Shown: piece after piece, positions 14,934 to 63,227 of the stretch
How the letters are laid out: the number at the start of each line of letters is the position of its first letter
Numbering within the stretch: the stretch's first letter is position 1
DNA from: Escherichia phage vB_EcoM_Lh1B
DNA: 64,000 nt
Reading direction: 5' to 3' (one strand)
Sequence record: OK428535.1
Made by a program: the position numbers and the translations under genes
Notes under the pieces: model-generated
The model's input: only the letters and a program-made list of their open reading frames with translations
Databases searched by the model: none
What the model was told of the DNA's origin: nothing

Positions 14934-14950
14934 GGGATAACCTCATCTCA

Positions 14951-14978
14951 AAAAGAACTCAGACAGATATTATCTATC
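14951..14978 (+). promoter_or_regulatory. candidate phage promoter motif (AT-rich family)
   Basis: AAAAGAACTCAGACAGATATTATCTATC, near-identical in its first half to 46607..46634. Confidence 0.35.
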
Positions 14979-15009
14979 CGAGACAACATCTCATAATAGG
15001 ATAACACCT

Positions 15010-15540
15010 ATGCTTTTTAAATGGCTTTCAACACTCCTGCGTCGTAAGGCTGTAGAAGCTCGCAGACGCTCTTTGGAGGCTGAGTTTCATAAGAATACCC
15101 ATAACACCCTACACAGAGTGATGGTGGGCTTAGAACTCATTACAGAGCCTCTGGAATATAATGGGAAAGAATACCTTCCTTTTTCATTGCGTGGACAACT
15201 CGAATTACGTATTCGAGATTTTGACACGTTGGTGGAGCGATTGGAATTCTTCATTTCTGAGTATAACCGTGTATCCAGTAGCAACATTCCCAATCAACGT
15301 TGGTTAGAGTTGCCTGAGGCAATCGATAGAAAAGGAGAGAGTTCAGAACCACGATGGCTTGATCATTATTTCGGTGCATCCGATCCTGAAGTCGCGCGCG
15401 AAAAACTGCGCACAGTCTTCGCTATGTTAGAACTGTATCAGCGTGCATTTGATAAACAAACACCCGAACAGGATACGCTGTTTAATCAAACCGCACATAT
15501 CTTCCGCGAGTTAGAAGTGATAGTGGAACACTATCTCTAA
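15010..15540 (+). CDS. hypothetical protein
   Basis: 176-aa ORF. Confidence 0.55.
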   Translation: MLFKWLSTLLRRKAVEARRRSLEAEFHKNTHNTLHRVMVGLELITEPLEYNGKEYLPFSLRGQLELRIRDFDTLVERLEFFISEYNRVSSSNIPNQRWLELPEAIDRKGESSEPRWLDHYFGASDPEVAREKLRTVFAMLELYQRAFDKQTPEQDTLFNQTAHIFRELEVIVEHYL

Positions 15541-15573
15541 CTTTTAATCTATTCCCTTGTAACAAGGTGATGT

Positions 15574-17707: not shown

Positions 17708-17716
17708 GGTACCTCT

Positions 17717-18568
17717 ATGTCGAAAGATGAAGGTAAGTTTTTGCGTAGTGCGTTGGAACGTCTACGTGTCGATGGTGCATCGGTGGATGCTTTGGCGGCT
17801 GCTTTTGGGTTTACGTTGCCCGCCTCGGTAGAAGCCACATATCCTGTTTTACGTCCCATCCTACCACCAGAAGAAAAGGAAGCCTTTGTACGCTATTTAC
17901 TGCGTATGGGTTACCAGAGTACCTTGGTGGATATCACGCCGTCTACAGACGGTCTGAATCACTTCAACATCTATTCGCAGGGGCGAACTGAGATAGGTCG
18001 GATGGCGAGTAACTTCTATGCTCGCCCTGGTGAGTATTTTGTTACCCCCCACGGACCTTTCCGGACGCTCGAAGGTTATTATCATTACCTGCGTATTCTG
18101 GATTACTTAATGCGTGAAATTNATAACCGCACTTTGGTGATGGAATTTGATATCATGNNACAGGCAGTGAACACCTGGCCTGATATTGAGAAGTTGCGTG
18201 CACTAGATGGCACCGACTGTATCCGGCTAGGTCGTAATCTGAAAGCGGAAATCTACGGAGGAACCAGTTATAAGCCCGGTTCATTTACCCCGGTTACAGA
18301 AAGCCGCTTTATCCATGCGCTGGTAAATAAACTCTTTATACTGTCGGTCGACGGGACATCGTTAGGTAATGTATTTGCAGAGATTCTGCGAGCACGTATC
18401 CCGCTTAAGCATTATTACATGATGCAAGGGCGTAAGATATTCCCAGCACACTGGGACTGGCTACCAAATCTGATTGAGATGATAGCTGAACATATCGATC
18501 CTGAGGACAGTACGTTTGATCGAACCGAACTTTTGAAGAAACTAGGAATCGATGATGGGACTATTTGA
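17717..18568 (+). CDS. hypothetical protein
   Basis: 283-aa ORF. Confidence 0.55.
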   Translation: MSKDEGKFLRSALERLRVDGASVDALAAAFGFTLPASVEATYPVLRPILPPEEKEAFVRYLLRMGYQSTLVDITPSTDGLNHFNIYSQGRTEIGRMASNFYARPGEYFVTPHGPFRTLEGYYHYLRILDYLMREIXNRTLVMEFDIMXQAVNTWPDIEKLRALDGTDCIRLGRNLKAEIYGGTSYKPGSFTPVTESRFIHALVNKLFILSVDGTSLGNVFAEILRARIPLKHYYMMQGRKIFPAHWDWLPNLIEMIAEHIDPEDSTFDRTELLKKLGIDDGTI

Positions 18569-19214
18569 TATTCTCAAAAACTTAGACGAGCAGCAGGAAA
18601 AAGAAGTCATTACTGTTGCGCGTGAGTCCATCTCTACGGAGAAGGAACGTGAGTATTGCATGTGGGTTAAACCCACTGAAGAAGGTTGGCAATGGCTGTT
18701 TGGTCAGACAGGTGAAACGTTCCTGGATGTGATTATGCCGGTCGTTAACGGCAAACGTCGTGTGCGGTTGTCCACCGATAAAACCGCAGTGTTGACGTTA
18801 AAACGGCAAGCATCTGACGGACGTATCGAAGAGAACTCGGATATCGGGTTTGCTTCGGGTCTGACCTTCTACGAAGATGGCAATCTTGCACATCTCGTGC
18901 GTCGTATCAAACTCGAACCAGGTGAACTGGCAGAGCAAGGTGCGAAGCATTGGGATATTGATCTGTTCTTTAAACTGGCAGGTCACCCAGTTATCGAATC
19001 GCAGGCAGGTTTCGAAGACCTTGTCAACGAACTGCGCGACTCCACGACATTCGGCGAGTGGGTAAAAGTCGAACTGGAAGTTGAGCGATTTGAGCTGACG
19101 TCTATCAAGGACGTATTGCCGTTTGCAGTAGAAGACGCTATTCCAGGCAACCCGTCGGATGCTGAAGCCCAGGAAGTCATTCGGAACTACTGGGATAATG
19201 AAACCCGCATCTAA
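18552..19214 (+). CDS. hypothetical protein
   Basis: 220-aa ORF. Confidence 0.55.
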   Translation: MMGLFDILKNLDEQQEKEVITVARESISTEKEREYCMWVKPTEEGWQWLFGQTGETFLDVIMPVVNGKRRVRLSTDKTAVLTLKRQASDGRIEENSDIGFASGLTFYEDGNLAHLVRRIKLEPGELAEQGAKHWDIDLFFKLAGHPVIESQAGFEDLVNELRDSTTFGEWVKVELEVERFELTSIKDVLPFAVEDAIPGNPSDAEAQEVIRNYWDNETRI

Positions 19215-19218
19215 GTCG

Positions 19219-19255
19219 TGCCCTCTCCTTCGGGAGAGGGTATCTTTATTTTTTA
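19219..19255 (+). terminator. intrinsic terminator
   Basis: Stem CCCTCTCC / GGAGAGGG with TTCG loop followed by T-tract. Confidence 0.6.
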
Positions 19256-19272
19256 TCTTAAGGAGTATGTAA

Positions 19273-19635
19273 ATGCAAATCGGCTTCTTCTTTAATCGTC
19301 ACGGAATCGTGTTTGTTTGTGGTGTTCCGGATAGTGACGGGAGACGTGTACNCANNTTAGAACTCGACGAAACATCTATGGTNGNGTGGAAAGAGAAACT
19401 TGCNCCCTTCGCAGAAGGTAAGTTTCAACTATTGCAACTCTACACGCAAGCTGCGTCGCCACGCGTGGCTTTCTCTAGGCTTGGGGACAGTGAAGACACC
19501 ACACACCTGGTTATCTTCAGTGGGCAGCCTGGTCGTGTATTGAGCGAATTATTGATGGGATTCAACCCGCCTAGCAAGCCCAGGATGAATACGTACAATG
19601 TGCACGACAGTAGTCAAATTCTTATTCTTCGATAA
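19273..19635 (+). CDS. hypothetical protein
   Basis: 120-aa ORF with AAGGAG RBS. Confidence 0.5.
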   Translation: MQIGFFFNRHGIVFVCGVPDSDGRRVXXLELDETSMXXWKEKLXPFAEGKFQLLQLYTQAASPRVAFSRLGDSEDTTHLVIFSGQPGRVLSELLMGFNPPSKPRMNTYNVHDSSQILILR

Positions 19636-25249: not shown

Positions 25250-25646
25250 TTACGATGAATACGTTGATCGTTTACTGGTCAACAATATCGTCTGGGAAGA
25301 CCACGGTCTAATGCCATGGCATCTGAAACTCCTAGCGGAGCGTTCAGAACAATGCGGTGGTTTGGAGTTCGTACTCACCGACACACCAATTCCGGTACCT
25401 CATATTGCGCCGGTAGAAAATCTGTACTTCTTCGATGCTAATGTGAAGTTATTACAGCAGGTACTCTATACGCATGACTGGCGTGGTGGTTGTCAGTTCC
25501 CAGAGAACGTTCTAAAGCTCTCTGAGCGCTTCGGCACCGACATTGCATACTGTCAAACGTTCCCAAAAGACTTGGGACGAAACAGCGTGGTACTGTGGTA
25601 TTACCCTCCGGTAAAAGACATCGTGAAAGTGATTATCGAACGCTAA
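25209..25646 (+). CDS. hypothetical protein (start may be 25224)
   Basis: 145-aa ORF; a second in-frame ATG at 25224 has a GAGG SD-like sequence. Confidence 0.5.
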   Translation: MRRLPMAKKLFTVDYDEYVDRLLVNNIVWEDHGLMPWHLKLLAERSEQCGGLEFVLTDTPIPVPHIAPVENLYFFDANVKLLQQVLYTHDWRGGCQFPENVLKLSERFGTDIAYCQTFPKDLGRNSVVLWYYPPVKDIVKVIIER

Positions 25647-25701
25647 AAAATAAAAGCAAACGAGTACCCCGTAAGGGGTACTCGCGTTACTTATTTTTTT
25701 T
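25647..25701. terminator. bidirectional intrinsic terminator
   Basis: Stem GAGTACCCC / GGGGTACTC with GTAA loop, A-run before and T-run after, at a convergent junction. Confidence 0.6.
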
Positions 25702-28547: not shown

Positions 28548-31500
28548 TTAGCTTGCTTTCCGACTTACGTTTAACGACGGTGTCGGTTGGGTTATTTCCT
28601 GCCTACGTGCAGCTGAGCCCGGAGGAGGCACATTTGCCGCTTGCTGGATACTACCACCCCGTGTGTCGTTTGCCGCTCTTGGATTTGATTTCAAAATATC
28701 ACGAATCTCTTTCAAGTAATCGCGAGACTGAATCAGTACCTTGAGCTGCTGAACATCTATCGGGTCACCATTCAGCGTTGGCGTCGATGCTGTAGCATCA
28801 GAAGTTGGGGCGGCAATTGGACGAGCTGCTGCGTTAACCTGCGCTTCCGCGCCTGCTTTCACTTTAGCAACATCCGTCNCAGACAATCCTTCTGCTGCAG
28901 CTTGCGACGCTACGGTTTCGGCCGTTGTTGAGGCATCGGATGTTCCGGTACCGCCTGTGGTTGGNGTAGGTGCTGCTGGTCCTACATTACCTGCGGCGGT
29001 AGCCATTGCATCTTGTGCCGCCATGGCCCCTTTCTGCGTCAATGCGTCATCACGACGATTAGCATTATCTGCTGGCAGGTTATCTGCNGGCGACAGACTC
29101 GGGTCATTAGCGGCCGGTGCACCCATTGCCGCTGCCGGGTTAGTTGGTGAATTAGGCGACAATCCTGCAACCATATCCTTCGTCTTGCTCGGAACGGCAG
29201 CGACTTCGTTGGCGGAAATTGCGCCCATGCGGCGGTTCAGTTCCTGAATAACCCCGTCTACGCTACGTATACGACCGTTGCTGTAGAAGACGTTGGCATT
29301 CCCTCTCAGTATTGCGGATGTAATCCCAGGAGCACTCGATGCCGCCATATTCGGATTACGCTTCCATGCTTCCAGGAATTTCTTACCGCCGCCTGCACCC
29401 AGGAAGTGGTACAGATAAGCCACGGCTGGNGGNGGTGCTTTACCACCCAGGTCACGTTGTGCTTTTTGGATGTTGTCACGAATGAACTGTACACCCAAAA
29501 TANCATNCNCCCNCGGGNCCNTCTGGTTAACACGCGGAANACCNAACTTCCNCGAANACCCCTTCATCATCCCGTCCCACGNGCCGTTAACAAACTGGAA
29601 CAACCCAGATGCCGAAGCATACGGGTTTTTAGCGGTGTAGTTAAATCCGGACTCCNCCTTAGCCATTGCTAACGCCACTGCAGGTGGCACGCCCATCATG
29701 TTCGCTGCATCGGTAATCAATGCTTTGATATTCGGAACGTTCAACGCACCCTTTCTACCCAACATTTCTATCGGGTATTTTTCAGCCAGTGACTTATAAT
29801 CACCGTCTTTCACTTCACTCAGGTTAATCGAAGACGAACCAGTGGTCATTGCAGCGTAGTTCCGCACACCGCCAACCGCATCGACGACTTGACCCAAGTT
29901 ACCCGGCACACCACCACTCGTACCCGATGGAATGTAGCCTGAGGCGCGAGCACCGTCAGATGACAAAGAATCTCCCGAACTGATGTTCGAGTCTTCTTCA
30001 TCTTCACCGGTAACTTCCAGAGAACTGCGGTTCTTGTTACGATCCTTCCAGCGTGCACGCTTGCCATTATTTTTAATGGCTTTAATCATGTTACGCACGG
30101 CAAGGTCAGCTTCTTTTGACAACAGCTTCAGCGTTTCCAGCTCGGCTTTGATAGACGATGGGTTCGTGTTAGCATCGCCCCCTAGTGGGTTGATGTTCAC
30201 TTCCCACACCGACTGTCTTATACCGCCTTTCAGGCTGTAGGCAGTTGACATCATCAGACTGATTTCGTACAGGTAGCCGCCGGTCAGTTTCAAGTTCAGC
30301 GGATCGGCTGTTGGCAGGTAACGCTTCACCCCAACCAAATACGTCATGAATACCGGTAAGAAGCGGTCAAAGAACCACCGTTTCAAACGATCTTCTTTCG
30401 GTGTGCCGATAGCGTCTGGAACCATCGAGGCGATGGCTTTCTTCCAGTCACCTTTATAGCTTGCGGTTTTCACGTCGATGTCTTTGATGACGTTCTTCTC
30501 GAATACCGTAATCAACGTGCGTGTGGCGTTGTCGATGGTGGTAAAACCATAAGTCTTCCAACGCACCGACTCCATCGCATTCATGTCTTTCTGGTCGAGC
30601 ACCGCGTTCCAGTCTACCTGAATCTGAACCTGCTCTGTTCCGTCTTCCCAACCTTCTACCTTCGCCAGATTTTTATTACGTTCGTTATCCAACTGTCCAA
30701 GTTTGTTGATAGCTTCATCAACACCCGCGGACTTAATCCCCTCCACGGCCGGTGCCATTCCGTACTTACGNGCTTTCTTATCGTCCATTCTGAACTTGAT
30801 TGCACNCNCGACTTCATTCTGCACTTCCATAACCTCTTCACCGCTCAAAAACTCCTTCGGTGTAAAGGTTACAACGTCCCAGGCTTTCGAGAAGAAGCCT
30901 TGGTTGACTTTGCGTGGGTCTGTTAACGAAGAGAACGCTTTTGCATCCTTAGTCATCTTCATTTTGTTGAAGAGTGTCTGCATGTCCTCTTTCGATACTT
31001 TCTTAGCATCGCCGACGTCAGCCAACTGGATACTATTCGGCATTGATTTCAGTGCCGNAATCCAGCGGAGATAAATCGGAATAAAGCGCTGAAGCATAAA
31101 CGCTTGGAAGGCCAACATCTCGCCTTTTTCCTCGACGTTAATACCGAACCCTTCAGCTAACTTCTGAACGTCTTTTCCACCTAGCCCACGGAGACTGGCT
31201 TGGCCATCTTCCGCGTAAGACACATACTCACGCAATGCGTCTTCTAAGTAACGCGCTTTCGCCCCGTCATCCGACGACCACTTATCGTAATCACGGAAAC
31301 CGTACTGAGCTAAACGCATCTTATCCAGGTACTGGGTATAGGTAGTCGTTGCGATCTTGTACNCGGCGTAACCNNCCNCGGNGNNCNCNCCACCGATAAG
31401 AATTGCCGGCCAACCCACCGCAGTCACGACGGCAGAGGCCCCGGTTCCCACNNCGGNCACCNCGGGTGCCNCCAAACGGGTTACTGCGAACTTACCAACA

Positions 31501-34500
31501 TTCCACGCAGCCTTACCTAAAAGACCTACGGGTTTTAACACACCCCATTTCGTGATAGAACCGAGTATATTACCCACAGTTCCCAAGATACTGACGATGG
31601 GGCCGATGATAGGTAAGCCTTTCACCATATCCCACAGACCGCCAGATTTCCCTTTGGAGCCCTGCNCTTTCTCTTTCTTCNCCTTNCNTTTCNCACNCCA
31701 ACNTTTGAAGAAGTTAAAGTAGTCGCGTTTTTCATCACCTTCAGGCGGCTTGTTACGTTTACCGAACTTCGCAAACATGGTACGAATAATACCATCGTCG
31801 CCACCTGCACGGGATACTGATTCGCGCATGGTGTTAAACCACGACATCTCTTGCAAGCCAATCATTCGGTCCAAGCGTTCGAATAACCTTGCACCTGCTG
31901 ACTTGGCGGCATTCTTCCCTTTGTTGATAACCCTCCCTGCTGCATCACGGGCGGTCTCAAGGTCTTCCTTCGCATCGCCGTAGACTTTACGGCCAGAAAG
32001 GCCACCTTTCGCGTTCAAATGGCTGCGATAAAACTCAGCAACATCGTCATCGCGTCCAGCCAACCGACGTTCAACTTCGTAACGTGTAGCAATGTCGTGT
32101 CGTGCTCCACGATATCCATCGAGCATATCCCCAGCCCGGCCTCGGAAACCACTGAACCAACCNCGCAGGCNGTCGCGTCCACGACCAAAGAACGCTTTTG
32201 TTCTTGACCAACGTCCACCAAAACGTTCAGACAATGACGATTTCGCACGATCATACGCCCCGCGTACTGCACGACCGATCGTACTACCGCCACCCCCGAC
32301 GCCCTTCTCCATTTCCTCTGTCCAACTTTCGTCTTCCGGATCTCCCGGTAAACGTTGGTTCAACAGTTTATAGATACGGATAAGGATGTGGTTGGTTTTC
32401 TTGCCGGTTGATGAGAAGAGACTGAAACCACCACCCCCACCATCTTTACGGCCTTTCCACCAACGCGTCAGTGGGTTGTCGGTAANCATGTCTTTCAGAC
32501 GATCGACACCACGTTTCGCAAAACCGAGCACTTTACCCGGTAAGCTCGTTACACGGTTGAACGCTTTCTGGAGACGTGTCTTTTCTTCGCCTTCCGGAAT
32601 CTCGTTCAGCCAGTCCTTAATCTTACCAACGATGCTGCCTGCTTTCGGTGACAGGAAATCCAGGAACCGCTTCGGTAGCTTAGCCACCTTATTAAAGCCT
32701 AAGCCAATCTTACTGGCCAGACCTTGGGTCAGTGCTTGGATTTTCCCGCCTTTATAGTAGCGGAGTTTACCCGCAGCGGCTAAGTCAGCGGCTGCTAATA
32801 CCAGATTACCTGCGGAGTCAACAATATCACTCCCCAGTTTGATGTCGTCCAGCGTTTTCAGCTGAACCATTTTACCATCAATGACCTGATAGTATTCTCC
32901 AGCTTCCAGACGTGCACCTTGCAGAACAACGTTACCGTGGTCATCGTAAACATCGCGGATACCCAGTAGTCCTTTACCGAAGGAACTTACCGCTTCAAAA
33001 CCACCACGGACACTACCACTGATAAGGCCACGCATCCGGGTTAAGAAACCAGGACCTTCGCCACCTCCCATGCCTGCGACTTTACCGCGTGCCCAACCAC
33101 CGAACTGGTTCAGTTTATTCCAGGCACCCTTAACACCACGTTTCGCAAAGCCGCCGATTCCTGCTGCGGTGTCGAACAANACACCGCCCCAACGACGAAT
33201 AAGCCCATCCTCACCGATGATAATACGACGGCGTCTACCGCCACCGCTACCACCACCAGGGCGAGGCGGACCCATTTCTTCATCACCAGAACCAGCACCC
33301 CCTGCTAACGAAGCCAGAAGAACCCCTTCTTCGTCCATACTTCTGACGTGTTCCAGAATTTTCTGGAGGGTGTCACTGTTGTTGTTACCACGAATCGCTT
33401 CGATGATACCGTCAAAGTTATTCCGTGGTGCTTCTTCGCCGCGGTTACGTTGACTCAACAATTCAACAAAGTTAGTCGAGGTTTTACCGTAGAGAACTGC
33501 GGCTAACTGCCGAGGCGACATTCCGCGGCCTTTACCACCGCCACGTAAANCNGGNGGTAACGACGTGTCATCGGCACCACCACTTGCCCCTTGGTTCATT
33601 CGGCGCAGATAGTCGCCTAACGCCGAACCATTTTGCAGCTTACGTTGAATCTCCTGGTCACGAGTCAATGCGCGCCCGCTGCGTGTCTTACCCATCGCCA
33701 AGTCATTAAACAAGGTATAGGGATCGGACAGGTCTTTATCCACGCCGAAGGTGTCACTCTTCGCGTCGTAGTTAAAGATACCCGCATCACGCAACGCTCG
33801 CTCGCCGTAAATATTCACCGCCTCGTCGATAATTGCCTGACGTTGGGTGATAGATGACTGCACTGTGGAGATTTTGCGAGCCAGTTCGTTACTTAATTCG
33901 TTGCTACCACCGAGTAAGCTGTCTGAATGCCCCTGTAACGCTTCCTTAATGCGTTCTGCGGCGTTTCCTGGCATATACCGATGAAGATGCATCGGGTCTT
34001 TCAGAATCGCTTCTACGTCGAATGCGCGGCCCTGCGAGGCACGTGACTCGATATAGTCGGCAAGATGCTGTCGATCCTTCTGCGAGAGCGTTTTGCCACG
34101 GTCAACAAAATCCACAGTGCTGTTAATGGAATTTTGGAGACGCAGGCGCTGCTCATCGTTTGCAACCGCTTTGCGTACACGGTTACCGACCACTTTGCGG
34201 TCTACGAAACCACGACTGGTGATGTCGTATTCCAGATCGGCATGTTCGCCATAGCCACGACGAACAGATTTGTTAATCTCTGCCAGCCAGGCAGGAATAA
34301 CTTCAACCAGGCTAAGATACGCTTTACGGTCAAACTTCGCCGAACGACTTAACGTTTCGCCATTACGCTCATCGAGGAAGGCTTTCTCACGGTTTAACGG
34401 TTGGACAATACCGAGTTCATTCAGTACCCGGAACAAATCCGCCAACGGTCCTTGTGTTTCGCCTGCGATAGCTGAGTTCGAGATAGAGGAAAGATTACCA

Positions 34501-35522: not shown

Positions 35523-35698
35523 CGCCGACTTCCTGGCAACATTCAGGGTACTGAGTATCGGGCTTCGTTTTTTCTCGTCTTTGGGACGGGGNGGTTCNCC
35601 NAAANCNTCCCANTCGTCGANTNTATCTAAATCNATATCATCNAAACCNTCTTTNCCTCTTTTTGCCNTAANNTTTNTTCCAATTNAGGAGNTTAAAA

Positions 35699-37312
35699 AT
35701 GACAAAGCTAAAATGGGTTNACTTTTACTTGTTAAACNNCAACAAGTCCCTGGTGTCGCATTTAAAACCAGTTACAACAACAGACACCTTTCAGGGACTG
35801 ACGAAAAACTTTCACCCTGAAGGACTGTATTCAACCGAAATTTTTGGCCTCACAGGGAGCGAAGCACGAGACTCAACGTTCTCGTACATTGATATCAAAC
35901 TGGATATCATTTCGCCGACCGTTTGTTTGGCATTGTTCCAGCTGAAACAGCTGTACGAAGAAATCTGTTCCGGGAAGCGATTCGCTATCTGGAATGAGAA
36001 AGAAAAAGATTTCGAGCCGGCTCTGCCCAGTGATAAAGGTGCAGACACCGGCTTCAACTTCTTCCTACGCTACTACGAACAACTGACACCGGGACGCAAC
36101 GAATCGATGCGTCGCGACGAGACAGTCGATTTCTTCAATAAGTTCCGTCCGGTCAGTCTCAGCCGCTATGTGCTGGTTCTGCCTGCGGGATTACGTGATT
36201 TGGTCATTCGTCAGGATGGCCGCGACCAAGAAGAAGAGATTGGCGGACTCTACCGTCGTCTGATTTCTCTGGCGCGTGCAATCCCCGACCGCAGTACGCG
36301 AACGGAACTGACTGACCCGGTTCGCTGGAAGCTCCAACAAACCTTTAATGATATCTGGATGTACTTCTTCAACATCCAGGATGGTAAAGGTGGTTTTGCA
36401 CGTCGTAAAGTGACGTCACGTAAGTTAATGAACGGTACGCGTAACGTACTGTCTTCATTCTCAACCGGTTCCAAGGTCATGGGTCGCGAAGATGCGATTC
36501 GTCCAACGGATACCCGTATCGGTTTGTACCAAACCCTGAAGGCATTACTGCCTGTGGCTCAATACCACATCCGTGAACGTTACCTCAGTAACATCCGGGC
36601 AGGGGACGGCAACTTATACGGCGTTAACACCAAAACACTCAAGCGTGAGTTCCTGGAAGTCTCCGGGCGGGTGTATGACCTTTTCACTACCGACGATGGC
36701 ATCGAAACACTCATCAACAGAATGGAAGCGCGCGAGCTTCGACATAAACCGCTGATGATTGATCCGGACCATTACGTGGCATTAATCTACCAGGACAAAC
36801 GCAGCTTCAAAATCTTTTACGATATTGAAGACCTGCCGGAAGGACGTGACCGCAAGCTTGTCCGCGGACTGAGCTTAGCAGAACTCCTCTATTTGTCAGG
36901 TTACGATATTTGGAATGACTACTTCTCGTTCATCACGCGTTATCCGGTTACGGGACGCGGTTCGACTTACTCCTCGACCATAAGATTGGAGACCACCACC
37001 TCTTCCCTCTATTTGCATGAACTGGAAGACGATTGGGNCACGTTAAAAGANAAGGGNGCAATTNGNTTCCCTGACCGTACCGTGAAAACNTTTGTGGAAT
37101 CCATGGCACCACATCCANCCCNATTAGGGGGNTTGGGNGGNGACNACGANGGNGACACCGGCNCANCAAANAGCCCGATGTCAACCGAAGCGCTCGNGGA
37201 AAATCGGAAGTGGGTCAGTTCGAAAAACTACTGGTTTGCAACAGACGGCAGTTTCAAAATCAATCCGGTTAACAACGTGATTAAAAGAACGACTGCTGCG
37301 CTGTTGAAATGA
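35699..37312 (+). CDS. RNA polymerase beta-prime-like subunit, N-terminal-half homologue
   Basis: 537 aa; ordered blocks VLVLPAGLRDLV, GGLYRRLI, GKGGFARRKVTSRKLMNGTRNVL, ITRYPVTGRGS, K.AI.FP and GGD-x-[D/E]-GDTG (37142..37156) match beta-prime lid/rudder/DPBB/catalytic-loop blocks; AGGAG RBS. Confidence 0.6.
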   Translation: MTKLKWVXFYLLNXNKSLVSHLKPVTTTDTFQGLTKNFHPEGLYSTEIFGLTGSEARDSTFSYIDIKLDIISPTVCLALFQLKQLYEEICSGKRFAIWNEKEKDFEPALPSDKGADTGFNFFLRYYEQLTPGRNESMRRDETVDFFNKFRPVSLSRYVLVLPAGLRDLVIRQDGRDQEEEIGGLYRRLISLARAIPDRSTRTELTDPVRWKLQQTFNDIWMYFFNIQDGKGGFARRKVTSRKLMNGTRNVLSSFSTGSKVMGREDAIRPTDTRIGLYQTLKALLPVAQYHIRERYLSNIRAGDGNLYGVNTKTLKREFLEVSGRVYDLFTTDDGIETLINRMEARELRHKPLMIDPDHYVALIYQDKRSFKIFYDIEDLPEGRDRKLVRGLSLAELLYLSGYDIWNDYFSFITRYPVTGRGSTYSSTIRLETTTSSLYLHELEDDWXTLKXKXAIXFPDRTVKXFVESMAPHPXXLGXLXXDXXXDTGXXXSPMSTEALXENRKWVSSKNYWFATDGSFKINPVNNVIKRTTAALLK

Positions 37313-37330
37313 TACCCATAAGGCACATGT

Positions 37331-40300
37331 ATGATTTTTCTGAAACAGTTTAACCAGCGCTTTACCGTGCGCAAGACCGATGAGTTCGGTCGTCCGCGTA
37401 TTATCCCGCTGGAGAAGCTCCAGCTCCCACGTGGTTCTATCTACCACACCATCGATTTAGACCAGGTGGTTTTAGCACCACCGTTAACTACACCGTNTTT
37501 TGNCCNGGTGGAAAAACCGGCGATGATTCGCCACCACTTCCAGCTGCCTGAAGACGGCATTATTGGCCACCCGCGTAAGAAACCGGTTGTTGGCCAAGAA
37601 CGTCAAATCTTCCAGTACCATCGTAACAATCGTCGTATTCGTCGCATGATTGAAGACGGCGTGGTACGTTCCGATCCGAAAGTGCTGCTCATCGAAAACT
37701 ACACCCCGATGCTGCCGCATTATTTCTACCCTGATACTCTGATGTCCTGGTACGAACGTCTGCACAACATTCAGCTGCTGATAACTAACCAGATGAAAAC
37801 TGACTCACGTGAGTACATGCGTCAGAACTACTACATCATCGAACTGGGTAACGTACTGCCTTCTTTCGATCGTTTTAAAATGACGTATAACGATCGTGTT
37901 AAAACCAAACTGGAGCGCTTTAAAGACTTTAACCTGCTGTGGTTACTGGAGTTGTTCGGTTGGGTGTACGGCGATCAGCAAGCAACACTGTTTGACGGTA
38001 TGGACATGAACCAGCTGTCACGTGTGAACTTTATCTTCACACACAACGGTGGTTTTACATCCATGAACATGGGTGTAATTGAAAGAATGCGTAAGTCTGC
38101 CGGTGGTCGTTTGACTGACGTGCAGATGGGCAGAATGTTCTACCGTACACTGACTACTGTGATGACCACACCGCCGTCTACCGACTACGAAGATGACGAG
38201 TTCGTTACACCGGAAGGGGATGAACGCGTACATCTGGGAGAGGACGACGATGCTGTTGAAACCGTTGCCAGTAAACCGGAAGAAAGCCTCGATATCGTCG
38301 ACGATGAAGCAACACAAAGCGACAACGTTGACGATACATTGAACGATCATGAGTTCGATGAGAAAGAAGATCTGGTCATCGAAGCGCCGAAAGAAGATGT
38401 CAAACCAACCACCATCGTCGTAGAACGCACCATCCCACACGATGCTGTGATTAAACAAGAAGTTGAGCGCCTGGCNGAAGCGGGCCGCGTCACCGCCAAA
38501 GCGTATCAGTTCCTGAACGAATCTTCTAAACGTTTCGTAAACTTACCCAACCCGTACAATCCTAAAGAGACGTACGGCGAAGGTCTGACCATCGATCCGA
38601 AGAAACTCGAAGTTAAAGCCGAGCCTAAGAAGATTGAACGCTTAGTTACGGATGAAGCCTGGGCGGAAAATACCACCGACCAAATCATTCGTCAGTACAA
38701 CCAGGAAATCTTCCCGAAAGATATTCTGGGGGCAGTAGCGTCATCTCAGCGTCTCGGTTTGGCGATTCACAATCACACTGTTNAGAAAGAGATTTCCGTT
38801 ACCGGGAATATCGAACACCACACGTTGCGTATTCAGCCGATTGGCGGAGAACCAACCACGGTACGTTTCTCAATTCCTGCATTAACCGAAGACGGTACTT
38901 GGGTTGCGAATGGTGTGGAATATACAATGCGTCGTCAGCGTGTTGATCTTCCCATCCGTAAAGTGTCCCACGATACTGTAGCGTTAACCACTGCCTACGG
39001 GAAGAACTTTGTCCGTCGCAGTGATAAAGTCGTCAATGATTACGGACGTTGGCTCACTAACGCGATTATTACTCGCGCGGTCGATCCAAAGAACACCGAA
39101 ATCACTGATGCAAAACTGGCGAATGTGTTCGATCCGCTGTCTAAACTGCCGCGTCAGTACACCGAGGTGGCACGTCGTGTAGCAGCATTCAACGCAATTG
39201 GGTACCAATGGAACTTTGACATTAAACAGAAAGCGGCATTCTTTAACGAAGGGCAACTGGCAGATGCGGACCGTGTCGAGCTGGTACCTGTGGCGAAGAA
39301 ACCGCGGAGTCATGTCATCGTCGGTATGGATAAAAACTCCCAGCTTTATCGAGTGGATAAGGATAAGACCGAACCACTGGGTACACTCGCCGAGGTCTTT
39401 GGCGTGGACACCTCTAAGGCTCCACGTGAAATGACCGAACTGTCACTGATGGGCAAATCAATCTCGCTGGGCTTTGTGTTTGCGTACTATCTCGGATTAA
39501 CCGGGATGTTGAAACACTTTGGTATCAGTTACGAGGTTCTCTCTGTCGGACAACGTATCGATAAAGGTCAGTTCGACTCCATTATTCGTCTCCAGGATGC
39601 GAAAATTGCAATTGTCTGCGAGAACGATCAACAGAGGATGATTGTCAACGGCTTAGACCGTTACATTAAACACTTTACCACGTATACCGAGTCGGAAGTT
39701 GACCGGGAAGACATTTACCTGAACCTGTTACGTGATGCAGATGGGCTAACACCACGCTACATCAAAGAGCTGAAACTGATGCGGACCGCATTTGTTGACG
39801 ACATGCACGCGCGTATCCTCAGGAAAATGGGCGAGCCGGNAACCTTTATCGGCTTACTGGAGCGTTCTAACGAACTGCTGCAGACGGACCACACGTTACC
39901 GGAAATTAACGGTGACGAAATGATGTTCATCGGGAACCAACGTATTTCGTATCACATCTACACCGCGATGGTGCGGGCGATGCGTAACTACAACAACGCG
40001 CCTAACTCGAATCGTAAGTTTGAGTTGACGCAGGACATGGTCTGGGGTGCAATTAACTCCGACCCGTCTGTTCTACTGGCTCCTGGTGCAAACCCGGTAC
40101 AGAACATCAAAGAAAAAGATGTTGTTACCATGGGCGGTACAGGTGGTCGTAACCGCAAGACCATGGTCTACAGTACCCGTGAATTCCAACCGAGCGACCT
40201 GGGGATTGTCTCCGGTAACACGGTCGATAACGGCGATGTAGGTATCACCGCCTTTGCAACAAACAATCCGCGTTACGACACCGTGGACGGCACGACCTTT

Positions 40301-41536
40301 AAAAAGGACCTCGATAAACTGAAGCCAGGTGAGGCACTGTCATTTATTGATGGCTTGGTGCCGGATACCCTGATGGACGATGCTAAGCGTCAGAACTTCG
40401 TTGGGATTCAATTCGGTTCTGCGACCAGTTGTGTTGGCGCAACCACCACACCGTATCGTACCGAGCAAGAAAAGTTCGTGGCACACCGTACTTCTGTGAA
40501 GCACGCACGCGTAATCGATAAACCTGGCAAGATTGTGGAGGTTCTTAACGACCACGTTAAAATCAAATACGACGACGGAGAGGAAGAAGCTTTCCCACTG
40601 GGCCGTTGGTTCGGTCCGCACGAAGGGACTTACTACCCACACACCCTGGTAACGAAATGGAAGCGCGGAGATAAACTCCCTGCCGGTGCCGTTATCACGT
40701 ACAACGAACAACACTTTGAACCAGACATCTACGATCCAACGCAGGTCAGTTTTAAAAACGGGATACTGGCAACTGTCGCTTTGATTGAAGGGGAAGAAGT
40801 AATTGAGGACTCCAACGCCATTAGTGAGCGGTTCGCTGCTAAGGCTGAAGCCGATGTTACCAAACTCAAAGAAGTCACAATGACGTTTACCCAGAACCTG
40901 TTGGAGATGGTAAAAGAAGGGGACCACGTAGACGTGGATTCAATTCTATGCACCTTCACCGACAACCTGACCGGCGATATGAGCGGGTTCAGTAAAGAAG
41001 CAGCGGAAACGCTGCGTGAGTTAAGCTCCTTTGCACCACGCTCTGGTGTTCGTGGGTTTATCGACAAAATCGAAGTGGTTTACCACGGCGAGGTGGAAGA
41101 TATGACCCCGTCTTTGGCGGAGATGGTTCGTAAATACGACCGTATACGTCGGAAGACTGCGCTGGCTCTCAAACGTGACGAGCCGAAGGATGGTCGAGTC
41201 AACGGTGATTTTCGTGTTGAGGGGGTGCCGTTAGCGTACAATAGCCTGTGTGTCCGATTCTACATCACACACCGGGTAGAGATGGCAGCAGCGGATAAGA
41301 TGGTTATTGCTAACCAGCTGAAAACGACGGTTCAGGAAGTGATGTATGGAACCAACAAAACGGAAGACGGGCAGGAACTCGACATTATCTTTGGTCGTGA
41401 TTCCGTCGACGCACGTATCGTAGGTTCTATCATGCGCATCGGAACCACCAACGCTGTCGGGTATCGTGGTGGGGAGAATATCGGACGCATCTTAGATGGT
41501 GAAGACGTCCCAGCCTTGCCGGCTAAAATCAACTAA
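37331..41536 (+). CDS. large protein, possible partner RNAP subunit (unconfirmed)
   Basis: 1,401-aa ORF in the same frame as the upstream gene, separated by TGA and TAA; only weak RNAP-like blocks (GAVASSQRLG, VVTMGGTGGRNRKTMV); acidic low-complexity insert. Confidence 0.55.
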   Translation: MIFLKQFNQRFTVRKTDEFGRPRIIPLEKLQLPRGSIYHTIDLDQVVLAPPLTTPXFXXVEKPAMIRHHFQLPEDGIIGHPRKKPVVGQERQIFQYHRNNRRIRRMIEDGVVRSDPKVLLIENYTPMLPHYFYPDTLMSWYERLHNIQLLITNQMKTDSREYMRQNYYIIELGNVLPSFDRFKMTYNDRVKTKLERFKDFNLLWLLELFGWVYGDQQATLFDGMDMNQLSRVNFIFTHNGGFTSMNMGVIERMRKSAGGRLTDVQMGRMFYRTLTTVMTTPPSTDYEDDEFVTPEGDERVHLGEDDDAVETVASKPEESLDIVDDEATQSDNVDDTLNDHEFDEKEDLVIEAPKEDVKPTTIVVERTIPHDAVIKQEVERLXEAGRVTAKAYQFLNESSKRFVNLPNPYNPKETYGEGLTIDPKKLEVKAEPKKIERLVTDEAWAENTTDQIIRQYNQEIFPKDILGAVASSQRLGLAIHNHTVXKEISVTGNIEHHTLRIQPIGGEPTTVRFSIPALTEDGTWVANGVEYTMRRQRVDLPIRKVSHDTVALTTAYGKNFVRRSDKVVNDYGRWLTNAIITRAVDPKNTEITDAKLANVFDPLSKLPRQYTEVARRVAAFNAIGYQWNFDIKQKAAFFNEGQLADADRVELVPVAKKPRSHVIVGMDKNSQLYRVDKDKTEPLGTLAEVFGVDTSKAPREMTELSLMGKSISLGFVFAYYLGLTGMLKHFGISYEVLSVGQRIDKGQFDSIIRLQDAKIAIVCENDQQRMIVNGLDRYIKHFTTYTESEVDREDIYLNLLRDADGLTPRYIKELKLMRTAFVDDMHARILRKMGEPXTFIGLLERSNELLQTDHTLPEINGDEMMFIGNQRISYHIYTAMVRAMRNYNNAPNSNRKFELTQDMVWGAINSDPSVLLAPGANPVQNIKEKDVVTMGGTGGRNRKTMVYSTREFQPSDLGIVSGNTVDNGDVGITAFATNNPRYDTVDGTTFKKDLDKLKPGEALSFIDGLVPDTLMDDAKRQNFVGIQFGSATSCVGATTTPYRTEQEKFVAHRTSVKHARVIDKPGKIVEVLNDHVKIKYDDGEEEAFPLGRWFGPHEGTYYPHTLVTKWKRGDKLPAGAVITYNEQHFEPDIYDPTQVSFKNGILATVALIEGEEVIEDSNAISERFAAKAEADVTKLKEVTMTFTQNLLEMVKEGDHVDVDSILCTFTDNLTGDMSGFSKEAAETLRELSSFAPRSGVRGFIDKIEVVYHGEVEDMTPSLAEMVRKYDRIRRKTALALKRDEPKDGRVNGDFRVEGVPLAYNSLCVRFYITHRVEMAAADKMVIANQLKTTVQEVMYGTNKTEDGQELDIIFGRDSVDARIVGSIMRIGTTNAVGYRGGENIGRILDGEDVPALPAKIN

Positions 41537-43358: not shown

Positions 43359-44087
43359 GTGGTCATGAGCGCCATTGAAACAGCACGTCGTGACGCGACG
43401 AAAATTCATGCAGATTTAGTGGACCAAGGCACGGCCACCATCACCAAAGGGGGATGTTACATTTACATCCCTGTTGGCTTCGTGGCTAAAGAGCTGGCGG
43501 TAATTTCTTCGCAAGTCGAAATCGTCGGCATTTTCGCTATCTCCACTGACCGCAAAACCTACGGGGTATCGAACGTCACGACGTTCATTGAAATTACCCC
43601 GTCGGCGTTTGAGGAAATTGACGTTCAGGGTGTGCCGTATTACGAGTTCCGTTTTGACCCCGGCACGGTGGTGTTCCCCAACCGAATGCTGCAAGTGCTA
43701 TCCTCGCCAGTCTACAACATCGCTTCGTACATCTACGACTTCGGAAACCGGCCTTTCTGGTACACCGCAGTAGATGACGCTGAGCTATTGTCTGACACTA
43801 AGACGTGGAACGGCTTTACGGTCTTTAACGACCAGATCACCGCTGACTGTTATGCTGCCCACACACAGCGTAAGGTTGGCGACCCGCGGACGTATTTCCG
43901 CTACACCCTGAAAAAAGACAGCGATTTGATGAATCGGGTGCAGTTTATTCCGCTGCGTTCAGGTTCATTGAACAAAACTTCCCGGTTGGCCAAGATTGCA
44001 GATGTGGAACTGAAACAGGGTATCCGTTCTGCACTCCAGGTCGATCCGGTACGTGCAGAGCCACTCGAGGATTTGTATATGAGGTAA
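43359..44087 (+). CDS. hypothetical protein
   Basis: 242-aa ORF with GAGAGG RBS. Confidence 0.55.
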   Translation: MVMSAIETARRDATKIHADLVDQGTATITKGGCYIYIPVGFVAKELAVISSQVEIVGIFAISTDRKTYGVSNVTTFIEITPSAFEEIDVQGVPYYEFRFDPGTVVFPNRMLQVLSSPVYNIASYIYDFGNRPFWYTAVDDAELLSDTKTWNGFTVFNDQITADCYAAHTQRKVGDPRTYFRYTLKKDSDLMNRVQFIPLRSGSLNKTSRLAKIADVELKQGIRSALQVDPVRAEPLEDLYMR

Positions 44088-46543: not shown

Positions 46544-46552
46544 GCTCTACTA

Positions 46553-46596
46553 GGCTCATCCTATCTTCGGATACGGGTGAGCCTTTTTATTTTATT
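46553..46596 (+). terminator. intrinsic terminator
   Basis: Long hairpin GGCTCATCC-TATC-TTCG-GATA-C-GGGTGAGCC followed by TTTTTATTTTATT. Confidence 0.6.
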
Positions 46597-46606
46597 AATT
46601 GCATTC

Positions 46607-46634
46607 AAAAAGAACTGAGATATATATTACTTAG
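46607..46634 (+). promoter_or_regulatory. candidate phage promoter motif containing TATATTAC
   Basis: AAAAAGAACTGAGATATATATTACTTAGG between a terminator and the next gene. Confidence 0.4.
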
Positions 46635-46656
46635 GTGAGCGTTACACGTTAACGCT

Positions 46657-46670
46657 TTAATCGACTATTA
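46657..46670 (+). promoter_or_regulatory. conserved upstream element TTAATCGACTATTA
   Basis: Variant of the 14-mer at 9136 and 47536; 19 nt upstream of ATG with AAGGAG between. Confidence 0.3.
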
Positions 46671-46689
46671 CCCAGAAGGAGTATTTACA

Positions 46690-47088
46690 ATGACTAACCA
46701 ACTACGCCAAGACCCGTTTGTTGCCATGATGCTTTGTGCTAAAGCCGAGAGCAACGAAGCCGATTTAATTCGTCTGTTGACTGATGACGAATACCTTATC
46801 TCTGAACGTGATAAACGTTTAGAAGAACTCTATAAGCCAGAAACCGGTGAATCGCTCGGTAATCAAAACGCCTGGAAATTTCTTATTCTCGTAGCTGATG
46901 AAAAATGGCGAGCAGAAAATCCCATCGTCTGCGATATTACAGACTTACCGTACAAATACGGCGGACTCATCACTAGCGACCTGCATCTTAAAGCGTTCTT
47001 TGCTGGTGAAGCAATTCAAGAACTGCAAGATGTTCTTGTTACAGCAACAAACACTTTGAGACGTTTACGCGCTGAGCAGCTAATCTGA
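46690..47088 (+). CDS. hypothetical protein
   Basis: 132-aa ORF with AAGGAG RBS. Confidence 0.5.
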   Translation: MTNQLRQDPFVAMMLCAKAESNEADLIRLLTDDEYLISERDKRLEELYKPETGESLGNQNAWKFLILVADEKWRAENPIVCDITDLPYKYGGLITSDLHLKAFFAGEAIQELQDVLVTATNTLRRLRAEQLI

Positions 47089-47532: not shown

Positions 47533-47535
47533 TAG

Positions 47536-47549
47536 TTAATCGACCATTA
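47536..47549 (+). promoter_or_regulatory. conserved upstream element TTAATCGACCATTA
   Basis: Identical 14-mer to 9136..9149; 17 nt upstream of ATG. Confidence 0.3.
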
Positions 47550-47566
47550 TCGTAAGGAATATTTAC

Positions 47567-48238
47567 ATGCAGGGCACTGAACTCAACAAACTTTGGGAAA
47601 AACTGGTTCGTCAATTCCGCGACTTCTATCGTTATACCGATAGTGCGCATCGCATGGATCACATCAACTCAGTTAAATCAAATGCGATTCGTATCGCGTA
47701 TATGCTTGGGCAAACCGAACACCTGAAGCTGATACTGATTGCGGTGGCAGCTCACGATATCTTCTCTACCAAAGAAGACCGTGCGTCGCACCACATCAAA
47801 GGGTATAGCTGGATACTGGATAACAAGCCAGTGCTCAAACGTAAGTATAAACTTACCGATGATGAATGTTTGACGATTGCCCATGCAGTCTTAGAACACC
47901 GCAGTTCTCACAAAGGGAACTACAACGGGATTGTCTCTGAGATAGTTGCCGCAGCTGACCGTGGCATACCGTCTGTAGATGACGTGAGTAATTACATGCA
48001 CCGTTCTTATCTGTTTGCCCGTGAACAGGGTAAAAGTAAAGGCGATGCAAAATTCCATGCCGTTGGTCACGTCCAACAGAAGTTCGGACGCAACGGTGTT
48101 AGTAATATCCCTAGTTGGTACGGTACGCTCTTCGCAGAGCGCATTCTGGAACGCAGGGATTTCGTGGAGCAGCTAGATATTAGCTATTTCACAGATACCA
48201 TTATCGATGACCTCGAAGCTCGTCTTTCTCATAACTGA
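47567..48238 (+). CDS. HD-domain phosphohydrolase
   Basis: 223 aa; H...HD...H...D pattern (HRMDHINSV, AVAAHDIFS, AHAVLEHR, AAADRG). Confidence 0.5.
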   Translation: MQGTELNKLWEKLVRQFRDFYRYTDSAHRMDHINSVKSNAIRIAYMLGQTEHLKLILIAVAAHDIFSTKEDRASHHIKGYSWILDNKPVLKRKYKLTDDECLTIAHAVLEHRSSHKGNYNGIVSEIVAAADRGIPSVDDVSNYMHRSYLFAREQGKSKGDAKFHAVGHVQQKFGRNGVSNIPSWYGTLFAERILERRDFVEQLDISYFTDTIIDDLEARLSHN

Positions 48239-48956: not shown

Positions 48957-48964
48957 TAAACAAT

Positions 48965-48998
48965 GGGGTGGTCTTATGACTGCCCTATTTTTTTTTTG
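48965..48998 (+). terminator. probable intrinsic terminator
   Basis: Imperfect hairpin with two wobble pairs followed by a 10-nt T-run. Confidence 0.45.
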
Positions 48999-52530: not shown

Positions 52531-52587
52531 GGAACGTCTCCATATATTCGTCTTAAAGACCTGATGGTCATACTAAGGATCATACTC

Positions 52588-61501: not shown

Positions 61502-61573
61502 GGCACTAAACCTCTAAAAATTTACGGATATATGTTATCATACTGAGAGTATACCTGAAGGAGATTTTACCCA

Positions 61574-62707
61574 ATGATGAACTATGAACGTAAGCACGCG
61601 TGGCAAGAAAAGCTACGCACGGGGCAGATACATTCTGCCCAACAAGTGAAGATGTGGGTGCTGCCGCACGGCGTCATCTGCGAAATGGTCCAGGTCGGGG
61701 GATTACCTATTCTTCGAAATGGCAAATACGATTCGATGAACACGGTACTCGCGCGCTTGCTGGCCGATGCAGGCATAATGGGTACCGTGATTTTATATTC
61801 AACCGCAACGATTCCTCAGAACCTTTCTCGCTGGTTAACACATTGGCTTTCCAATGACCCTAGCGAGGACGATCCGTGGCTACGTTCGATGACAGTGACA
61901 ACAATGGGTCAACGGCCGACGAAACCCCTCCCATTCCAGGTCAATGTAATTGAACCAGCTATTCTGGAAGCGGGTGAAGTGTTTGAAGCAATCAAACATC
62001 GATCTCGCGATGTTAGCATCAGTCAGTTTCTTATCGAAGCGAATGATGTGACTTACCGGCTGGAGCCTGTACGACGTATGGACGCTCGTATCGTCGACTG
62101 CACAGAGTTCGGTTATGTCTTGCGTACACAGGGCAACCATACCTTCCTGGCATCGATGCTCTCTCGCCGCGTGCAGGGACAGTTAGCACACTACAAAGTG
62201 TCCCCTGCTGACCTCGTCGGTACCGACGTTAAGGTCGAATACACAATGTTTACCGAAGGGAATCGACTGTGTAATTTTAAGTCTCCGGTAGTCTATCGGA
62301 GTAAGGCACTTGATGCCTTAGGCGACCAGAATGTCCCGACATACGATGGCCCCTATCCGTTTAAATCGCAAGCATCTGCAAACCGTGCGCTCCTTACGGT
62401 AACTCGGTGTAAACGCGCAGCGATCACGCGGACCGACGGGGAAATTTATGGTAAGGACACTGAGTCTGACGCAAAACTCTTTTCGTTCCGGCGTGGTGTG
62501 AAACCTGGATTGTATGCCGCGACGTTTGAAAAGGGGGATGACGTCGAGTTCTGGCAGTTCGACAGCGATTTTGCAGTAGATGCGATTGACCCAGATGCGT
62601 TAGTGAGTGTCATCACAGACCAAATCTTTTACGCGACGGGTATGAGCCTGCTGGAAATCTTTTTAATGTACGATGCCAGATTACCTTCACAGTCAGTCAA
62701 AACGTAA
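61574..62707 (+). CDS. hypothetical protein
   Basis: 377-aa ORF with GAAGGAG RBS. Confidence 0.55.
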   Translation: MMNYERKHAWQEKLRTGQIHSAQQVKMWVLPHGVICEMVQVGGLPILRNGKYDSMNTVLARLLADAGIMGTVILYSTATIPQNLSRWLTHWLSNDPSEDDPWLRSMTVTTMGQRPTKPLPFQVNVIEPAILEAGEVFEAIKHRSRDVSISQFLIEANDVTYRLEPVRRMDARIVDCTEFGYVLRTQGNHTFLASMLSRRVQGQLAHYKVSPADLVGTDVKVEYTMFTEGNRLCNFKSPVVYRSKALDALGDQNVPTYDGPYPFKSQASANRALLTVTRCKRAAITRTDGEIYGKDTESDAKLFSFRRGVKPGLYAATFEKGDDVEFWQFDSDFAVDAIDPDALVSVITDQIFYATGMSLLEIFLMYDARLPSQSVKT

Positions 62708-62717
62708 GGAGCCTCCT

Positions 62718-63227
62718 ATGTTTACTGCGCCAACCGTGCAGGTGGGGCAAGGTCTTAACCTGGTGGTACACGACCAGCGGTTAATCGACCTCTGCGACAC
62801 AAGCATAATTACTGCGATGATGGACCATAACCCTTTAGGTGACTACGGAAATACCAGCGAGATTTTGGCTGTTGCTGCCGTCCTCCGTCGTATTTACGGT
62901 CAAATAACCATCGTAGATCTCTGTAACTTCATTGACAACCACAGAGATTTAACTAAAGGGTTGGTCGCACTTACTCAAGATGGGGTGTCAAGTTTTGACA
63001 GTTCTCTTGGTAATTTCCTAGACATCGGTTCCGGGTTCGACTCCGGGCTAATGTTCATCACTCGTGAACGCTACGTCGCCGTCTGGGAATTTCTGCAACG
63101 CATGGGTGTGCATGTTCCTGCAAAGATCATGCATTACCAAACTTACGACCTGAATATTTTCGGGGAGCCAGGGTTATGGATAAAACCAGTACACCTTGGC
63201 CTTGATGGCTACACCATCAAGTGTTAA
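62718..63227 (+). CDS. hypothetical protein
   Basis: In-frame ATG at 62718 with AAGGAG RBS; preferred over ORF-track start 62673. Confidence 0.5.
   Translation: MFTAPTVQVGQGLNLVVHDQRLIDLCDTSIITAMMDHNPLGDYGNTSEILAVAAVLRRIYGQITIVDLCNFIDNHRDLTKGLVALTQDGVSSFDSSLGNFLDIGSGFDSGLMFITRERYVAVWEFLQRMGVHVPAKIMHYQTYDLNIFGEPGLWIKPVHLGLDGYTIKC

Follow-up and report, generated by a model that had tools for sequence, protein, structure and literature searches.

Probable phiKZ-type early promoters in Escherichia phage vB_EcoM_Lh1B, an SPN3US-like jumbo phage

Introduction

A characteristic AT-rich motif can be found in every jumbo phage that encodes RNA polymerase, and wherever it has been tested or transcripts have been profiled it is an early promoter (PMC7598289). 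The class is defined by a highly conserved element, some 10 nt long and with its centre near -10, which reads TATATTAC or ATATTAT (PMC7598289; PMC7058600), and the early promoters of phiKZ and 201phi2-1 show conservation at -10, -20 and -30 (PMC11512511; PMC8244752). Between 28 and 32 such promoters have been mapped in phiKZ, where they share the TATATTAC consensus and have been assigned to the virion RNA polymerase. Early motifs are reported to have been predicted for every phage of this kind in the description of the AR9 genome by Lavysh in 2016. The early sites of phiKZ are found on the leading strand, in front of early operons (PMC8244752), and in both phiKZ and phiR1-37 the distance from the element to the transcript start is 6 nt (PMC5312081).

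The early promoters of the Bacillus jumbo phage AR9, mapped by dRNA-seq and primer extension, have the form AAATATATATTAT-N6-G+1, and one deviation from this consensus can silence a predicted site (PMC5312081). AR9 does not need protein synthesis for its early transcription, which has been attributed to the virion polymerase (PMC5312081). As of that paper, in 2017, no virion polymerase of the group had been purified, and direct promoter recognition is a deduction even in the model phages (PMC5312081).

Here we analysed a stretch of 64,000 nucleotides, given as one strand, from Escherichia phage vB_EcoM_Lh1B (sequence record OK428535.1), hereafter the window. An initial annotation had noticed four related AT-rich motifs in front of gene blocks and proposed them as candidate promoters for a phage RNA polymerase, of the phiKZ early type. 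This proposal is supported by a match with the published consensus, by the enrichment of the motif in Salmonella phage SPN3US and by the virion polymerase subunits that the window encodes. The consensus named for phiKZ on that occasion, TATATTAC, agrees with the literature (PMC7058600 Table 2; PMC8244752). The four sites are, in our view, very probably early promoters of an SPN3US-like jumbo phage.

Results

The phage and its polymerase genes

The window is about 97-98% identical over its length to SPN3US and close relatives. Its position 1 corresponds to about 177,620 in SPN3US (NC_027402), and it spans the last quarter of that genome. Judged by its sequence, the phage is an SPN3US-like (Seoulvirus) jumbo phage; members of this genus are phiKZ-related jumbo phages with genomes of about 240 kb. 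Besides virion RNA polymerase genes, the window carries genes for a prohead protease, a tail sheath and a terminase. The three polymerase subunit genes listed in Table 1 matched RNA-polymerase beta families in a PHROGs search, and a further part of the virion polymerase is encoded at 43365-44087. In SPN3US, gp218, gp240, gp241, gp42 and gp244 are head-associated polymerase subunits, as found in heads analysed by mass spectrometry (PMC5105663). A Pfam search returned no match for the ten window proteins tried, polymerase subunits among them, and no Rfam family matched anywhere in the window. The early-promoter motif described below is absent upstream of the virion polymerase genes in the window, including those at 35699-41536.

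The record contains 247 single N characters scattered through the window (for example at 35660-35700, 31000-32000 and 37000-38000), some of them in gene start regions, as around 35666-35698. They resemble masked or ambiguous base calls rather than gaps, and none falls in the four promoter cores.

Table 1. Features in the window, with positions counted from its first letter; one row, marked as such, gives SPN3US positions
Feature	Position	Strand	Details
Site A	46603-46639	+	class 1, ATTCAAAAAGAACTGAGATATATATTACTTAGGTGAG; ATATTAC core 46624-46630; predicted start G 46637; 41.7 bits
Site B	14945-14982	+	class 2, ...CTCAAAAAGAACTCAGACAGATATTATCTATCCGAG; ATATTAT core 14967-14973; predicted start G 14980; 29.7 bits
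Site C	6408-6444	+	class 2, TCTTAAAGTAATCTGAGATAGATATTATCTACAGGGA; ATATTAT core 6429-6435; predicted start G 6442; 32.5 bits
Site D	61511-61547	+	class 2, ...CTCTAAAAATTTACGGATATATGTTATCATACTGAGAG; ATGTTAT core 61532-61538; predicted start G 61545; 31.3 bits
Predicted unit A	46637 to about 48990	+	gene 46690-47088 and next four genes; predicted leader 53 nt
Predicted unit B	from 14980	+	15010-19214, ends about 19243; predicted leader 30 nt
Predicted unit C	from 6442	+	6472-9098, ends about 9126; predicted leader 30 nt
Predicted unit D	61545 to beyond 63227	+	61574-63227; predicted leader 29 nt
Intrinsic terminator, end of unit A	48962-48997	+	strong; terminator scan
Intrinsic terminator, end of unit B	19218-19253	+	terminator scan
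Intrinsic terminator, end of unit C	9103-9136	+	terminator scan
Intrinsic terminator closing the unit upstream of site A	46552-46597	+	stem 46552-46584 and U-run; -21 kcal/mol, z -5.9
Hairpin at predicted 5' end of transcript A	46637-46657	+	GAGCGUUA-CACGU-UAACGCUU; begins at predicted +1
Other SPN3US class-1 leaders with 5' hairpin	starts 4446, 56313, 65432, 94258, 114005, 165706 (SPN3US)		
Box copy 1	46659-46670 (extended repeat 46656-46685)	+	AATCGACTATTA; leader of gene 46690; CGAC 28 nt before ATG
Box copy 2	9138-9149 (extended repeat 9135-9164)	+	AATCGACCATTA; just after terminator 9103-9126, before gene 9167-10090
Box copy 3	47538-47549 (extended repeat 47535-47564)	+	AATCGACCATTA; before HD-domain gene 47567-48238, inside unit A
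Two virion RNA polymerase subunit genes	35699-37312 and 37331-41536	+	homologues of SPN3US gp240, gp241; phrog_2986, phrog_3148
Virion RNA polymerase beta C-terminal subunit gene	13122-13790	+	homologue of SPN3US gp218; phrog_3233

Four copies of one oriented motif

The four strings that had been pointed out are present in the window (AAAAAGAACTGAGATATATATTACTTAGG from 46607, AAAAGAACTCAGACAGATATTATCTATC from 14951, GAGATAGATATTATCTAC from 6422 and GATATATGTTATCATACTGAGAG from 61527), and the one correction to make is that the first ends at 46635, one base beyond the 46634 that had been given. An exact TATATTAC lies within site A at 46623-46630. When aligned on the core, the sites are copies of one oriented motif of about 35-45 bp, with an A-run, (T)TTCAGATA(G/T), ATATTA(C/T), six variable bases and a G, usually within GAG, as their common parts. 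In terms of blocks, an A-tract occupies -29 to -24, TTTCAGATAK -23 to -14 and ATATTAY -13 to -7, followed by six bases and an invariant G; the blocks near -20 and -30 are thus present as in phiKZ-type early promoters. The initial annotation was right that the strings are related and underestimated their extent, which runs from about -32 to +3 with more positions in common than described. It had also called the fourth string looser, a description that does not hold, since site D, with 31 bits, belongs fully to the family. The -10 element reads ATATTAY or ATGTTAY in 4/4 window sites and its columns are nearly invariant over 23 SPN3US sites, and the G stands exactly 6 nt after ATATTAY in 4/4 and 23/23 of them, respectively.

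These copies are far more numerous than expected by chance. The degenerate pattern AGAYAKATRTTAY-N6-G, with at most one mismatch, matches exactly the four sites, with 0.18 matches expected and 0/100 shuffles reaching four. We also scanned the window on both strands with a 48-column weight matrix built from 17 SPN3US sites outside the region homologous to the window. Beneath the four sites (scores in Table 1), the next score, 20.1 bits, belongs to the palindromic site B read in reverse, and everything else is at or below 1.1 bits; in 200 random 64-kb sequences the best score averages 2.4 with a maximum of 16.5. Since only these four sites score high, the list in the initial annotation is the complete set of the motif in the window. 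An unbiased repeat finder returned the same motif as the top and largest direct-repeat family of the whole window (family D1).

Sites B and D each open a + strand block in a divergent intergenic region, and site C begins where the gene before it ends, at its stop codon. On the - strand, the genes pointing away from the early promoters are for the most part virion genes, and no common motif could be recognised for them in the divergent regions 2332-2394, 10898-10995 and 52531-52587. Some of them have TATG, the start motif of phiKZ late promoters, as at 61536-61543 in site D, where it is not conserved in the Erskinevirus relatives.

The core of site B is embedded in a 25-nt imperfect palindrome (14958-14982). 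Read on the - strand, this palindrome scores 16-20 bits, more than any random match, with one mismatch in the core (ATAATAT) and a G 6 nt downstream; from this G it is 27 nt to the start of 14463-14933, the lone gene on the - strand there. From its sequence, this reverse reading could be a weak promoter in the opposite direction. The terminator scan also flags the palindrome, as a hairpin followed by a T-run.

Genome-wide distribution in SPN3US

The genome of SPN3US was assembled with its 264 annotated genes for a genome-wide count. Enrichment of the motif upstream of genes, a check that had been set beforehand, is present: ATATTAY-N6-G occurs 24 times on both strands, 18 of them within the non-coding 6.4% of the genome, and the full matrix gives 23 oriented sites of at least 27.8 bits, the next best match having 15.8 bits. 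All 23 lie on the + strand and are co-directional with the next annotated + strand gene. Their cores are non-coding with one exception (site 25232, inside a coding sequence), and the distance from core to next start codon is mostly 39-148 nt, with three sites farther away at 246-274 nt. Site D and the other variant sites might be weak, because ATGTTAT replaces ATATTAT in site D and single deviations can silence sites in AR9, although the G variant recurs at three other SPN3US sites.

None of the 23 sites stands directly before an annotated virion-structural gene (about 50 of the 264), for which the probability is about 0.01 with 21 random genes. Two polymerase genes are among the genes downstream: 29014-33356 is directly preceded by one site, and 17704-19299 belongs to an operon with its start at 15768 that has two sites upstream. 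By elimination, these two genes would be those of the non-virion polymerase, because they are missing from the list of virion subunits in PMC5105663. The non-virion polymerase is an early product in phiKZ and AR9 (PMC7598289). The genes behind the SPN3US sites are presumed to be early as well.

Conservation in diverged relatives

Syntenic regions were compared in SPAsTU and pEa_SNUABM_29 (divergent Seoulvirus, about 76% identity) and in Asesino and phiEaH2 (Erskinevirus, about 70-74%). All four of these phages have sites A and D at the orthologous positions, with 25-42 bits, and sites B and C are likewise retained in both phages compared for them (pEa_SNUABM_29 and Asesino in the case of site B). 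Across the two genera, the promoter block is invariant or nearly so in the alignments and the flanks diverge. At site C, essentially just the motif and the ribosome-binding site are conserved in the alignment with two diverged relatives.

Comparison with early promoters of other phages

We scanned phiKZ DNA from 1 to 50000 and obtained AAAAA..TTTaAGAt.TATATTAC-N6-G, that is an A-run, TTnAGAT at about -20, TATATTAC at about -10, six bases and a G, the same layout as in the motif of the SPN3US group. Applied to phiKZ, the SPN3US matrix scores the TATATTAC motif that lies 80 nt upstream of PHIKZ054 at 30 bits. For this gene a primary start site with an early motif has been reported (PMC8244752), the agreement being at the level of the gene. 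The SPN3US lineage differs from phiKZ in that the core ends in C or T, the -20 block is CAGATAK and there are two subclasses. In addition, the start sites of phiKZ have been mapped experimentally, whereas those of the SPN3US group are predicted from sequence.

A further match comes from other genera on other hosts. Pseudomonas phage OBP and Klebsiella phage N1M2 have predicted early promoters of the form …WWWWWTTTYARRYAKATATTATYWWADTG, to be set against AAAAwwTTTCAGATAKATATTAYCTWRGTG in the SPN3US group, and the OBP consensus TTTYARRYAKATATTATYWWADTG is compatible with the SPN3US consensus TTTCAGATAKATATTAYCTWRGTG at 24/24 aligned positions (PMC7058600 Table 2). The OBP and N1M2 sites are bioinformatic predictions too, so that the match stands for a common motif and not for common experimental proof. 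The consensus of 201phi2-1, TATATTACDWHDGTG (…TTTRARR.BTATATTACDWHDGTG), also fits site A, through TATATTAC-TTAG-GTG (PMC7058600). AR9 is alike in its ATATTAT core, its 6-nt spacer and its initiating G, and differs in having uracil-containing DNA, no phage nucleus and no CAGATA block at -20.

A parallel is also offered by phage N4, whose virion polymerase is a single-subunit enzyme acting on hairpin-forming promoters. The concept is alike, with a virion-carried polymerase that transcribes early genes from phage-specific promoters (cf. PMC4496689). Unlike in N4, the enzyme would be multisubunit here, and just the class-2 sites are even partly palindromic. A literal search of a library of papers for the motif strings matched only unrelated primer sequences.

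Predicted transcription units and terminators

Predicted units A, B and C are about 2.4 to 4.3 kb long, carry genes of unknown function and have strong intrinsic terminators at their ends, with 48962-48989, 19218-19243 and 9103-9126, respectively, as narrower limits; for unit D no terminator was identified. The unit upstream of site A is closed by a terminator hairpin of which both stem arms differ from those of the relatives in a compensating way.

A further hairpin family (D3, AAAAAATAAAAGCCTACCYACTCCC...), with T-runs on both sides, occurs at 267-305, 10086-10126 and 25645-25669. The latter two copies lie in convergent intergenic regions, and the D3 hairpins are likely bidirectional terminators. 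The gene 9167-10090 (307 codons) is found in the window and in phage EC001 and is missing from SPN3US, where the homologue of 8556-9098 is directly followed by that of 10142-10897. Its presumed counterpart in Erwinia phage Asesino, by position and size, is gp235 (927 nt). This gene stands behind a junction of terminator and box, the latter being described below.

Two classes of predicted promoter and the class-1 leader module

The 23 SPN3US sites split into two classes. Class 1 (CAGATATATATTACYTAGGTGAG) comprises seven sites, window site A included, with leaders of 50-77 nt and about 25 nearly identical bases in common. Class 2 (AGATAGATATTATCT), to which sites B, C and D of the window belong among others, has leaders of mostly 26-42 nt with little structure; as exceptions, several SPN3US leaders of this class measure 59-261 nt, and a few fold significantly.

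The hairpin predicted at the 5' end of transcript A has equivalents, with different stem sequences, at all six other SPN3US class-1 promoters and at four orthologues, and is missing from class-2 leaders. Every class-1 fold ranks within the 5% tail of its shuffles or below it, and in 9/11 class-1 leaders (orthologues counted) the first paired base of a significant hairpin is the predicted +1 G, which speaks for that prediction, this evidence being that of single-sequence folds with shuffles, which is weaker than true covariation counts. The stems vary between copies (GAGAGTT, GAGCGTTA, GATAGA, GAGATGAG, GAGATTA). RNAalifold did not recover the 5' hairpin from five orthologous site-A leaders, because the stems differ by a compensated insertion and the MAFFT alignment is out of register. 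We considered whether a 5'-terminal hairpin is general to virion-polymerase transcripts and rejected this, as it was significant in just one of the seven phiKZ early leaders folded.

After the class-1 hairpin and upstream of the ribosome-binding site comes a box, AATCGACYATTA, with CGAC 25-28 nt before the ATG. The box forms the second-largest direct-repeat family in the window (D2) and is conserved in five phages whose hairpin sequences differ. In SPN3US, 8/13 copies of CGACYATYA fall in the non-coding 6.4%, and nearly all are inside early-promoter units. The box also precedes some internal genes of early units, and at two places, window 9138 and SPN3US 167595, it directly follows a terminator, so that it may act either as a leader element or as a second promoter. 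The middle promoter of phiKZ has a TACT motif centred at -22 (PMC8244752). As a middle promoter of this type the box was rejected, since a start 22 nt downstream would coincide with the start codon and the conserved ribosome-binding site would be lost.

Discussion

Our results describe a family of oriented sites, matching the early-promoter consensus published for related phages, in front of gene blocks of an SPN3US-like phage. We infer from them the start sites, the early timing and the virion polymerase as the reader of the motif. The words "early" and "virion polymerase" rest on homology, because our literature search found no mapping of transcript 5' ends, time course or rifampicin experiment on SPN3US-like phages. 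If the homology with phiKZ and AR9 holds, a multisubunit RNA polymerase would be packaged in the virion and ejected with the DNA. It would recognise the region from -32 to +3 in one orientation, through the A-tract, TTTCAGATAK, ATATTAY and the start G, and would do so independently of the host sigma-70 polymerase and of new protein synthesis. Transcripts would then start at the conserved G of each site, and blocks of small genes, assigned to PHROGs of unknown function, would be transcribed.

Other explanations of the motif have to be weighed. The core TATTAT matches TATAAT at five of six positions and an A-rich stretch lies upstream of it, so that the sites might be promoters of the host sigma-70 RNA polymerase, with TATTAT as a -10-like hexamer and the A-tract as an UP element. 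The initial annotation had seen no convincing sigma-70 -35/-10 pair, and our consensus scan bears this out, with no + strand pair of 16-18 nt spacing overlapping any of the four sites. Sigma-70-like matches in these parts of the window are not above those of shuffles (20 vs 24.9 and 14 vs 23.0), and neither the strongly conserved CAGATAK (-20 to -14) nor the G at +1 is a sigma-70 determinant. Moreover, phiKZ-type phages develop independently of the host polymerase (PMC13282480; PMC7598289). Host promoters thus appear highly improbable here. It is also conceivable that the motif serves above all as the operator of a DNA-binding regulator of the phage, such as a dimeric repressor of early genes that binds the class-2 core AGATA-N5-TATCT, possibly besides a promoter role. 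The inverted repeats of the class-2 cores, above all the palindrome of site B, would suit such a protein, and in SPN3US the gene of an HTH DNA-binding protein (94310-94675) stands right behind one site. However, a symmetric operator need not be oriented, whereas 23/23 sites have the same orientation relative to their genes; the conserved flanks are asymmetric, with the A-tract upstream and GTGAG downstream, and class-1 sites (TATATTACYTAGG) belong to the same family and have no palindrome. In view of this strict orientation, these asymmetric flanks and the non-palindromic class 1, promoter function is argued to be primary; the motif also equals the experimentally validated early-promoter consensus of relatives, and a mainly regulatory operator seems to us unlikely, although the sites may have both roles.

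T4-type phages carry promoter-early-stem-loop elements, and by analogy the repeats could be boundaries of mobile or recombining gene cassettes, that is junctions of terminator and repeat and not determinants of transcription. At site A a terminator hairpin is indeed followed at once by the repeat, the class-1 copies are nearly identical over about 25 bases, and the 1-kb gene 9167-10090, absent from SPN3US, sits behind such a junction with the box. Against this, the sites occupy orthologous positions in syntenic genomes of two genera and not variable junctions, and their conservation is position-specific and promoter-like rather than a simple repeat identity. We consider cassette boundaries to be hardly credible as an explanation, and early promoters remain the reading that we adopt.

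It was already known (PMC7598289) that this class of motif exists, that it is linked to the virion polymerase and that every jumbo phage encoding a polymerase has it. The class-1 leader module is the sole part of this work that may be undescribed. The two promoter classes differ in their leaders, and tentatively we suggest that the class-1 hairpin and the single-stranded box AAUCGACYAUUA together could control some of the early genes after transcription, in a way so far undescribed, by stabilising the mRNA or by serving as an operator or enhancer of translation; alternatively, the box could be a second (middle-class) promoter. We regard this proposal as possible and somewhat less than probable.

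To conclude, the sites described here belong to a known, well-described class and add nothing conceptually new to it. They mark the expected starts of the first transcripts of the phage, with four early units in the window, of which three have a terminator that could be identified; in the whole SPN3US genome there are 23 such promoters. They may be of use for annotating early genes of unknown function, for the design of reporters and knock-downs in the SPN3US genetic system and for infection-inducible expression cassettes. Finally, the near-identical consensus in Salmonella and Erwinia phages and in the Pseudomonas phage OBP suggests that promoter recognition by the virion polymerase would be highly conserved across the family.
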